Part shown: piece after piece, positions 14,739 to 14,767 of the stretch
Position numbering within the stretch: the first letter of the stretch is position 1
Layout: every line of letters starts with the position of its first letter
Virus record (IMG/VR): IMGVR_UViG_2703718827_000006
Direction: 5' to 3' (one strand)
DNA from: a virus
Taxonomy: Duplodnaviria > Heunggongvirae > Uroviricota > Caudoviricetes
DNA: 24,041 nucleotides
Program-made: the position numbers and the translations under genes
Notes under the pieces: model-generated
Database searches by the model: none
Told to the model about the DNA's origin: nothing
Seen by the model: only the letters and a program-made list of their open reading frames with translations

Positions 14739-14767
14739 CGAGCGCGCGCTCGTATCCCCGCCACGCC
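14739..14767. other. Candidate cos (cohesive end) region: 14-bp palindrome plus a sequence resembling P2/186 cohesive ends
   Basis: Seen in sequence: palindrome cgagcgcgcgctcg (14739-14752), then the reverse complement of 14749-14767 reads GGCGTGGCGGGGATACGAG. Its first 13 nt equal the start of the 186 cohesive end (GGCGTGGCGGGGAAAGCAT) as I recall it; the P2 end is GGCGAGGCGGGGAAAGCAC. Lies on the far side of Q where cos is expected. Confidence 0.4.

Follow-up and report, generated by a model that had tools for sequence, protein, structure and literature searches.

A predicted cos site between two accessory-gene slots in a Fels-2-type P2-family prophage of Escherichia coli

Described cos sites and the P2 defence hotspot

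In the cos site of phage lambda, the nicks are staggered and the nick site has partial two-fold symmetry, and its terminase recognition lies on one side only. P2-type phages, in contrast, package their DNA from monomeric circles. We analyzed a stretch of 24,041 nucleotides (IMG/VR virus record IMGVR_UViG_2703718827_000006, hereafter the window), in which a predicted cos site resembles that of lambda in its logic of staggered nicks, partial symmetry and one-sided recognition but has no sequence similarity to it and differs in its predicted overhang, which is 19 nt here and 12 nt in lambda.

Closer relatives are found among the phages of the P2 family. Phage 186 (with PSP3 and EtG; Eganvirus) has its cos in the same orientation with respect to the portal and replication genes and carries an SOS DinI/Tum module on the replication side, but it differs from the window by the 176 bp separating cos from the portal gene and by a full-length Tum plus orf97 on the other side. 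SEN8 and Fels-2 (Felsduovirus, from Salmonella) possess the same 19-mer as the window, and cargo both between portal and cos and between cos and DinI. Nevertheless, their host is different and so is their cargo; for SEN8 this is an HNH endonuclease with a hypothetical protein, for Fels-2 a hypothetical protein of 565 aa. P2 and P4 share the core elements of the site with the window, but their cohesive end is different (GGCGAGGCGGGGAAAGCAC), and the cargo of P2 (old, tin) lies on the replication side only.

The gpA-gpQ region beside cos has been well studied as a defence hotspot of P2 (Rousset 2022, PMC9122126), known as the 'TO region' in the earlier P2 literature, and the window has this same locus, with the same anchors and the same type of cargo. 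The position between cosL and gpQ is presented as an insertion hotspot, with reference to Dodd and Egan 1996 and Nakayama 1999, in a passage of PMC5694545, and later surveys treat gpA-portal as one well-known hotspot. In addition, the proteins WP_021580613/4/5 and WP_000834899 are catalogued as hotspot loci in supplementary file 6 of PMC9122126, and these accessions cover the three-gene cassette of the window as well as its 141-aa protein, in the same arrangement. The cos variant, the hotspot and the arrangement of the genes are already on record. The hotspot papers, however, describe one hotspot, whereas the relatives of the window show two independently assorting slots split by the cos block; a statement that the hotspot consists of two slots split by a sharply bounded block of 151 bp was not found in the literature.

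The cohesive-end site and the block around it

An earlier note, made from the sequence alone, had proposed a cos site at this place on account of a match to 13 nt of the 186 cohesive end. This match is exact. In the 186 record the first 19 nt, GGCGTGGCGGGGAAAGCAT, are annotated as cos, and GGCGTGGCGGGGA, read on the minus strand of the window from 14767 to 14755, is identical to nt 1-13 of it. The 13-mer has a single exact occurrence in the whole window, and the chance expectation for such a match is about 7e-4 in 2 x 24 kb. From 14767 downwards the minus strand reads GGCGTGGCGGGGATACGAG, then CGCGCGC and TCG, and the stretch from 14767 to 14749 has the form GGCG(A/T)GGCGGGG followed by 7 more nt and is G+C-rich. 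This predicted 19-nt end is identical to that of SEN8 at 19 of 19 positions, to that of 186 at 15 and to those of P2 and P4 at 14.

For 186, P2, P4 and SEN8, we then linked the right end of each record to its left end and compared the result with the minus strand of the window over 66 nt, corresponding to 40 nt upstream of the end, the 19-nt end itself and 7 nt downstream. Results showed an ungapped identity of 59/66 to SEN8, 52/66 to 186, 49/66 to P4 and 47/66 to P2, and the similarity to the cos regions of P2 and 186 for which the earlier note had suggested an alignment is indeed present. For comparison, the runner-up placement of the 186 cos in the window reached 33/66, over a background of 16.5 +/- 3.6. 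Upstream of the end, 31 of 40 nt are identical to 186 (window TGCATGAAAACCACTACATAAAGCGGGCA, 186 TGCATTAAAACCGACCCATAAAGTGGGCA), and P2 and P4 are similar. Directly after the 19-nt end, (T/C)GCGCGC is found in P2, 186, P4, SEN8, Fels-2 and the window, with divergence beyond it in all of them. A multiple alignment also revealed the conserved elements in the same order in the window, P2, 186, P4, SEN8, Fels-2 and a satellite. Moreover, gpQ and gpA flank the site, as they do in every P2-family genome examined, and the portal and terminase genes are directed away from cos, a layout that is the same in 186, P2, Fels-2 and SEN8. The likeness to 186, the 19-mer of SEN8, the gpQ-gpA position and the core in common with P2, 186 and P4 sustain the proposal of the note, and the site is very probably the cos of a Fels-2-type P2-family (Peduoviridae) prophage integrated in the E. 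coli chromosome. The coordinates of the features are collected in Table 1.

Table 1. Features of the window around the predicted cos site, in order of position
Feature	Position	Strand	Basis or remark
Small terminase (gpM)	6800-7450		Phage_term_smal, E 2e-40
Large terminase (gpP), 588 aa	9505-11271	+	Terminase_6N, Terminase_6C, Terminase_5 all present
Portal gene, P2 gpQ homologue	11268-12305	+	Pfam Phage_portal, E 4e-17
26-bp perfect palindrome	12309-12334	.	Directly after portal stop; terminator-like match
Three-gene cassette, ~368-371, 144-148 and 221 aa	12370-14597	-	ORF list; reads from beside cos towards portal
Cargo-specific leader, presumed promoter region	14598-14741	-	Unrelated in relatives with different cargo
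cos block, GC 0.54	14742-14892	-	Delimited by comparison with relatives
GCGCGC element	14742-14748	-	Sole conserved portal-side sequence; next to cohesive end
Predicted 19-nt 5' cohesive end, GGCGTGGCGGGGATACGAG	14749-14767	-	Homology with annotated 186 and P2 ends
Right-end-side core, TGCAT.AAAACC....CA.AAAG.GGGC.	14768-14803	-	Common to P2, 186, P4 and P4-like satellites
G+C-rich hairpin, then UUUUG	14811-14842	-	Inverted repeat; fold -25.1 kcal/mol, z -4.85
Distal TGCATG repeat cluster, right edge of block	14863-14892	-	Repeat counts, alignment
Far-side insertion, 731 bp	14893-15623	+	Absent from relatives L006, L007 and L010
141-aa gene, signal peptide MKSFYVLILILVASFVSVPVQA cut before V	15110-15535	+	Translation
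SOS module	15695-16185	-	LexA box, 62-aa ORF and DinI-like gene
DinI-like gene	15695-15928	-	Pfam DinI, E 1e-22
62-aa ORF of SOS module	15939-16127	-	
LexA box, CTGTTTATATTTACAG	16170-16185	-	LexA-box pattern
Replication gene, P2 gpA homologue	16280-18694	-	Pfam Phage_GPA, E 5e-127; conserved right hotspot anchor

By homology, the nicks are predicted at 14768/14767 on the minus strand and at 14748/14749 on the plus strand. In its final 7 nt the end has ATACGAG in the window and AAAGCAT in 186, so that with 6 of 7 bases differing the exact nick positions are those given by the alignment alone. The same 19-mer stands at the start of the SEN8 record, annotated as 'putative cos site', and it is named as the cos site in the SEN8 genome paper, where the assignment was made in the course of annotation and not from sequenced ends (PMC5427200). 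SEN4, SEN5 and Smp131 are likewise reported to have ends of the '...ACGAG' type. We also looked at where records terminate. Those of SEN8 and EtG stop exactly at the equivalent of 14768/14767, the EtG end being of the 186 type, and a record end at the predicted nick was found in 0 of 120 among the IMG/VR contigs listed. The records of Cartapus and Midge end near the nick, not at it, and were set aside as evidence on the ends.

Comparison with relatives delimited a conserved block of 151 bp around the predicted end. In nine relatives the homology starts at 14741 or 14742 (in one of them weakly from 14728) and stops at 14883-14892, to resume only in the DinI region, and at the junctions the DNA in front of GCGCGCGCTCGTATCCCCGCCACGCC is unrelated from one cargo type to the next. 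Of 5426 complete E. coli genomes searched by BLAST, 1474 contain the block, with a match to 80% or more of it in 1282; a BLAST search of phage records picked out the same 151 bp, in 102 of them. The whole block of the window is 100% identical to that of other E. coli genomes, and the blocks of SEN8 and Fels-2 are 89-94% identical to it. P2-type and satellite matches span only positions 1 to 62 or 65 of the query. In E. coli PCP06022, and in keeping with the hotspot literature, the cos core of a P4-like satellite is nearly the same as that of the window and adjoins a Hachiman system.

A scan of IMG/VR with the 29-mer 14768-14796 gave at least 120 contigs, from which 109 non-identical loci were profiled; the conservation at 14768-14796 is fixed by construction, as this is the search pattern. 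Among the matches listed, the frequency of the majority base increases from 0.3-0.5 to at least 0.8-0.9 at 14742-14743, with position 14742 itself varying among the viral loci, and drops after about 14892. The cos core 14742-14810 of the window has the majority base of the 109 listed loci everywhere except at 14797, 14798 and 14804, which are variable columns. On the portal side, conservation ends 6-7 bp past the predicted nick.

Within the block, both predicted nicks follow a similar heptamer when each is read 5' to 3' on its own strand (GCGGGCA^G and GCGCGCG^C), and the same holds for P2, 186 and P4. We infer that the GCGCGC element would be the half-site for the second nick, and a heptamer at each nick would explain the survival of exactly these 7 portal-side bp. 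On the other side, the right-end-side core together with the 19-nt end amounts to 55 bp, and a 55-bp core is attributed to Ziermann and Calendar 1990 in passages of PMC5694545 and PMC3931495. Further on, the G+C-rich hairpin has its counterpart in an inverted repeat of 186 at the matching position and likely terminates transcripts that come from the SOS (DinI) operon. Finally, the block has 4 copies of CATGCA (at 14791, 14863, 14873 and 14886) against 0.06 expected from its density in the window, and the TGCATG repeats have counterparts at equivalent places in P2, 186, P4 and a P4-like satellite, which makes them candidate recognition elements for the small terminase.

Part of this sequence could be read differently. 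The palindrome announced by the earlier note, CGAGCGCGCGCTCG at 14739-14752, is indeed perfect over its 14 bp. The note had also placed the cos sequence behind it, and here only the presence of the two elements stands, as the 19-nt end overlaps the palindrome by 4 nt and does not come after it. Being G+C-rich, located exactly at the junction of cargo and cos block, and with its inner GCGCGCGC kept across the family, the palindrome might be functional in itself, as an operator or terminator of the cargo operon or as a site of cargo recombination. We consider this very unlikely. The only portion common to the relatives is that from 14742 rightwards, GCGCGCGCTCG, and its conserved inner part is accounted for by the nick half-site. 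The outer CGA (14739-14741) corresponds to the last 3 bp of the window's cargo and differs in every relative with other cargo, where GTT, CTT, TAA, GTG, TTA or TGA is found; it belongs to the cargo junction because the homology of the relatives begins sharply at 14742, and the full symmetry is limited to one cargo type. Moreover, perfect palindromes of at least 14 bp are expected by chance, as the window has 3 of them and locally composition-matched shuffles have at least one in 81% of cases (mean 1.68), and neither slot shows a target-site duplication or a repeated junction motif. The palindrome was rejected as a signal on account of its expected length and variable outer bases, and the 14-bp symmetry is a by-product of the conserved GCGCGCGCTCG being extended by 3 complementary bases of cargo.

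Two other readings accept the site as a cos and place it in a different element or state. It may be left over from a prophage that has become defective (cryptic), and be neither cut nor used any more, considering that only 24 kb of the prophage are visible and that relatives show decay, with frameshifted portal genes in two of them (L010 and L007) and a deleted prophage in a third (L016). This is improbable, since gpM, gpP, gpQ, gpN, gpO and gpL (terminases, portal, capsid, scaffold and head completion) are all full length with strong Pfam matches, the core departs from the majority of the 109 listed loci by three substitutions in variable columns only, and the block is found unchanged elsewhere in E. 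coli. Still less credible, to the point of being negligible, is that the cos belongs to a P4-like satellite adjoining the prophage. An E. coli P4-like satellite (L018) does possess a nearly identical core, GGCGTGGCGGGGCTACGAG, beside a defence hotspot of its own; here, however, phage portal and terminase genes occupy one flank and phage DinI, gpA and methylase genes the other, psu, sid, delta and the alpha-primase are all missing, no satellite genes lie between 12306 and 16279, and Fels-2 and SEN8 show the same synteny around cos. The cos of a Fels-2-type prophage is therefore the reading that we retain.

Cargo on both sides of the block

On the portal side, the gap between cos and the portal stop is 2436 bp long with a GC of 0.34, versus 167 bp in P2 and the 176 bp of 186. 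In agreement with the earlier note, which had located a three-gene operon between portal and cos where P2 has a short spacer, this gap holds the three-gene cassette. The portal protein is annotated at the same position in the relatives and constitutes the conserved left anchor of this slot. The 26-bp palindrome next to the portal stop is likely a bidirectional terminator between the portal gene (plus strand) and the converging cargo operon (minus strand). As to the start of the operon, a promoter scan gave matches in the region at a level not above shuffles, with no minus-strand match between cos and the start of the cassette, and no convincing consensus promoter was found in the leader.

We also searched for the possible function of the cassette. 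Its proteins belong to no Pfam, PADLOC or NCBIfam family (with nothing usable in Pfam at E up to 10), and in PHROGs they match only families of unknown function. The 221-aa protein possesses an invariant D97...E110-A-K112 (D...ExK) across 38 homologue clusters, and the named clusters all come from Enterobacterales genera. Its model has a pLDDT of 90.7. Foldseek against the PDB returned nothing significant for this model, with no match below E 0.01, and the weak matches are mostly PD-(D/E)xK nucleases, namely McrC, Bax1, HincII, Cap4 and Can2. The same three genes are present in E. coli TUM13066 (L010), and the whole cassette was also found in two other contexts. In a lambdoid prophage it lies downstream of the O/P replication genes, and in a Citrobacter island it is accompanied by a WYL regulator and a pyocin. 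The occurrence in these last two contexts indicates a mobile cassette, as is typical of defence systems. The cassette is a putative anti-phage system with a candidate nuclease of the PD-(D/E)xK type.

On the far side of the block, three relatives (L006, L007 and L010) have 7 bp, TACAGAG, in place of the 731-bp insertion, and their slot can be regarded as 'empty'. The insertion contains the 141-aa gene with its signal peptide, confirming the secreted-protein gene that the earlier note had put beyond cos, and the protein matches PHROG 7437, of unknown function. A search for target-site duplications or repeats, covering both ends of the insertion as well as the left junction, found none.

Two other statements of the earlier note had to be abandoned. 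It had counted the Tum module among the far-side cargo. The SOS module of the window corresponds to the p95/tum operon of 186 and is 92-98% identical in five relatives despite their different cargo (L005, L006, L007, L010 and L015), and 86% in a sixth (L017), whose DinI gene is a pseudogene. Judged by this comparison, the DinI/Tum-like SOS module is conserved backbone and not cargo. Neither does an AT-rich island run through cos, as the note had it; instead, two AT-rich segments (GC 0.34 and 0.42) are split by the block of 151 bp, with its core-like GC of 0.54.

We also asked how the two slots are occupied in related elements. Among 14 annotated relatives compared, all 12 of the Fels-2 type carry cargo on the portal side, of 11 kinds, and several of the annotated relatives also carry genes on the far side. 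The portal-side genes differ in Fels-2, SEN8, 813R9 (vB_EcoM-813R9), 500465-1 and the E. coli prophages L011 and L014-L017, and include genes for a TIR protein, an HNH protein with an AAA ATPase, DprA, a P-loop NTPase and Hypoth_Ymh. In the viral contigs among the matches listed, the portal-side slot measures at least 500 bp in 76 of 87 (median 1735 bp) and is 'empty' in the manner of P2 (137-238 bp) in the other 11; the far-side slot measures at least 342 bp in 47 of 94, and 10 of the 94 have the same 803 bp as the window. Considering both sides together, 32 of 70 related viral contigs among the matches listed have both slots filled, 28 the portal side only, 5 the far side only and 5 neither.

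The two sides vary freely with respect to each other. Over 110 loci among the matches listed there are at least 81 types of left flank and at least 34 types of right flank, in at least 94 combinations, and in viral contigs the right-flank type of the window is paired with at least 7 different left-flank types. The same is seen in E. coli genomes, where H122-H125 are identical on the right side with diverged left cargo, and H101-H104 share an identical left cargo and have an empty right slot. These free pairings in contigs and genomes indicate that the slots are exchanged independently, with the cos block as their common boundary. A cos flanked by two cargo slots is the ordinary, expected and most common configuration of a very common type of E. 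coli prophage.

Proposed cutting and exchange, and what they would mean

To account for these observations, we propose, by homology with P2 and 186, that the phage terminase, composed of the small and large subunits listed in Table 1, would recognize the block and nick it at the two predicted positions, 19 nt apart. Such staggered nicks would leave virion DNA with 5' single-stranded ends of sequence GGCGTGGCGGGGATACGAG. Recognition would lie almost wholly on the side of the replication gene, involving the core and the TGCATG repeats up to 14892, and the sole portal-side sequence required would be the GCGCGC that adjoins the nick. Both flanks may have become slots for accessory genes because everything outside the block would be dispensable for packaging. 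The homology by which each slot is exchanged separately could then be provided by the block itself, combined with the portal gene for one slot and with DinI/gpA for the other.

The possible use of cohesive ends as recombination substrates was raised as a speculation by Rousset et al. (PMC9122126). A wider reading would combine two independently exchanging slots, a portal-side need of 6-7 bp, exchange in which ends cut by terminase are joined and a single homologous crossover follows, and a cassette that is an undescribed anti-phage system. In this combination, the cut ends would come from different phages or satellites residing in the same cell. Taken as a whole, we hold it only tentatively and consider it rather doubtful that all of its parts are right.

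The cos of the window leaves the current understanding of these phages unchanged. Its position would fix the ends of the virion chromosome, and the two accessory modules would therefore lie at opposite extremities of the packaged DNA. If the terminase needs about 7 bp on the portal side, this would be useful for P2-type cosmids and for the engineering of cargo. In addition, the block of 151 bp can serve as a reliable landmark for annotation, splitting the P2 defence hotspot into two slots that can be scored separately.

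Possible nick symmetry and repeats in the cos block

We found that a similar heptamer precedes each of the two nicks predicted by homology, when read 5' to 3' on the nicked strand (minus strand GCGGGCA^G, plus strand GCGCGCG^C), as is also the case before both nicks of P2, 186 and P4. Judging from sequence, this pair suggests a two-fold symmetric nicking site, which would explain why just 7 bp of the conserved block are kept on the portal side. The same block contains the hexamer CATGCA (TGCATG on the minus strand) four times against 0.06 expected. As the positions of these repeats match in P2, 186, P4 and a P4-like satellite, we consider them candidate sites at which the small subunit of terminase recognises the DNA.

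Features mapped around cos in the window
Feature	Coordinates	Strand	Details
Perfect palindrome, TAAAAACCTGCATATGCAGGTTTTTA	12309-12334		26 bp; 4 bp past the portal stop
Three-gene cassette	12370-14597	-	371, 148 and 221 aa
Heptamers at predicted nicks	14742-14775	both	
TGCATG repeats	14791-14892		within the 151-bp cos block
Strong hairpin, then U-run	14811-14842	-	within the cos block
Discrete insertion	14893-15623		731 bp
LexA-box match, CTGTTTATATTTACAG	16170-16185		upstream of a minus-strand 62-aa ORF and a DinI-like gene

Transcription units and cargo on both sides of cos

The hairpin lying inside the cos block (-25.1 kcal/mol, z -4.85) probably terminates transcription of the SOS (DinI) operon; an inverted repeat occupies the equivalent place in 186. 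The LexA-box match is placed upstream of its genes as in the p95/tum operon of 186, and predicts SOS-inducible expression. On the portal side, where the portal gene and the cargo operon converge, the palindrome between them is likely to act as a terminator in both directions.

The three proteins of this portal-side cassette matched no family in Pfam, PADLOC or NCBIfam searches. In the 221-aa protein a D97...E110-x-K112 motif is invariant and the structure model is confident; its fold matches are weak, mostly to PD-(D/E)xK nucleases. The cassette was also found in a lambdoid prophage and in a Citrobacter island, and may be an undescribed anti-phage system. On the far side of cos, the insertion occupies the place where relatives have 7 bp (TACAGAG), with no target-site duplication present, and codes for a 141-aa protein with signal peptide MKSFYVLILILVASFVSVPVQA|V, assigned to PHROG 7437, a family of unknown function.

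The cos core in relatives and in a satellite

In the heavily deleted prophage of E. coli EC25 (L016), a P-loop NTPase gene (3290-5134) as annotated begins within the cos block (5001-5150); either its start was called too far upstream, or the 5' end of the gene overlaps the packaging signal. Phage 500465-1 (L007, NC_049342), whose portal and terminase genes are split, carries a 1-nt deletion in the cohesive-end sequence at about 4014 (CCCCGCACGCC versus CCCCGCCACGCC); either the sequence is in error here or the prophage has decayed.

At 3960-4160 of L018 (E. coli PCP06022), a P4-like satellite possesses a near-identical cos core, with end GGCGTGGCGGGGCTACGAG, directly adjoining a Hachiman system (HamA and helicase). 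Therefore, this cos variant is common to helper-type and satellite-type elements.
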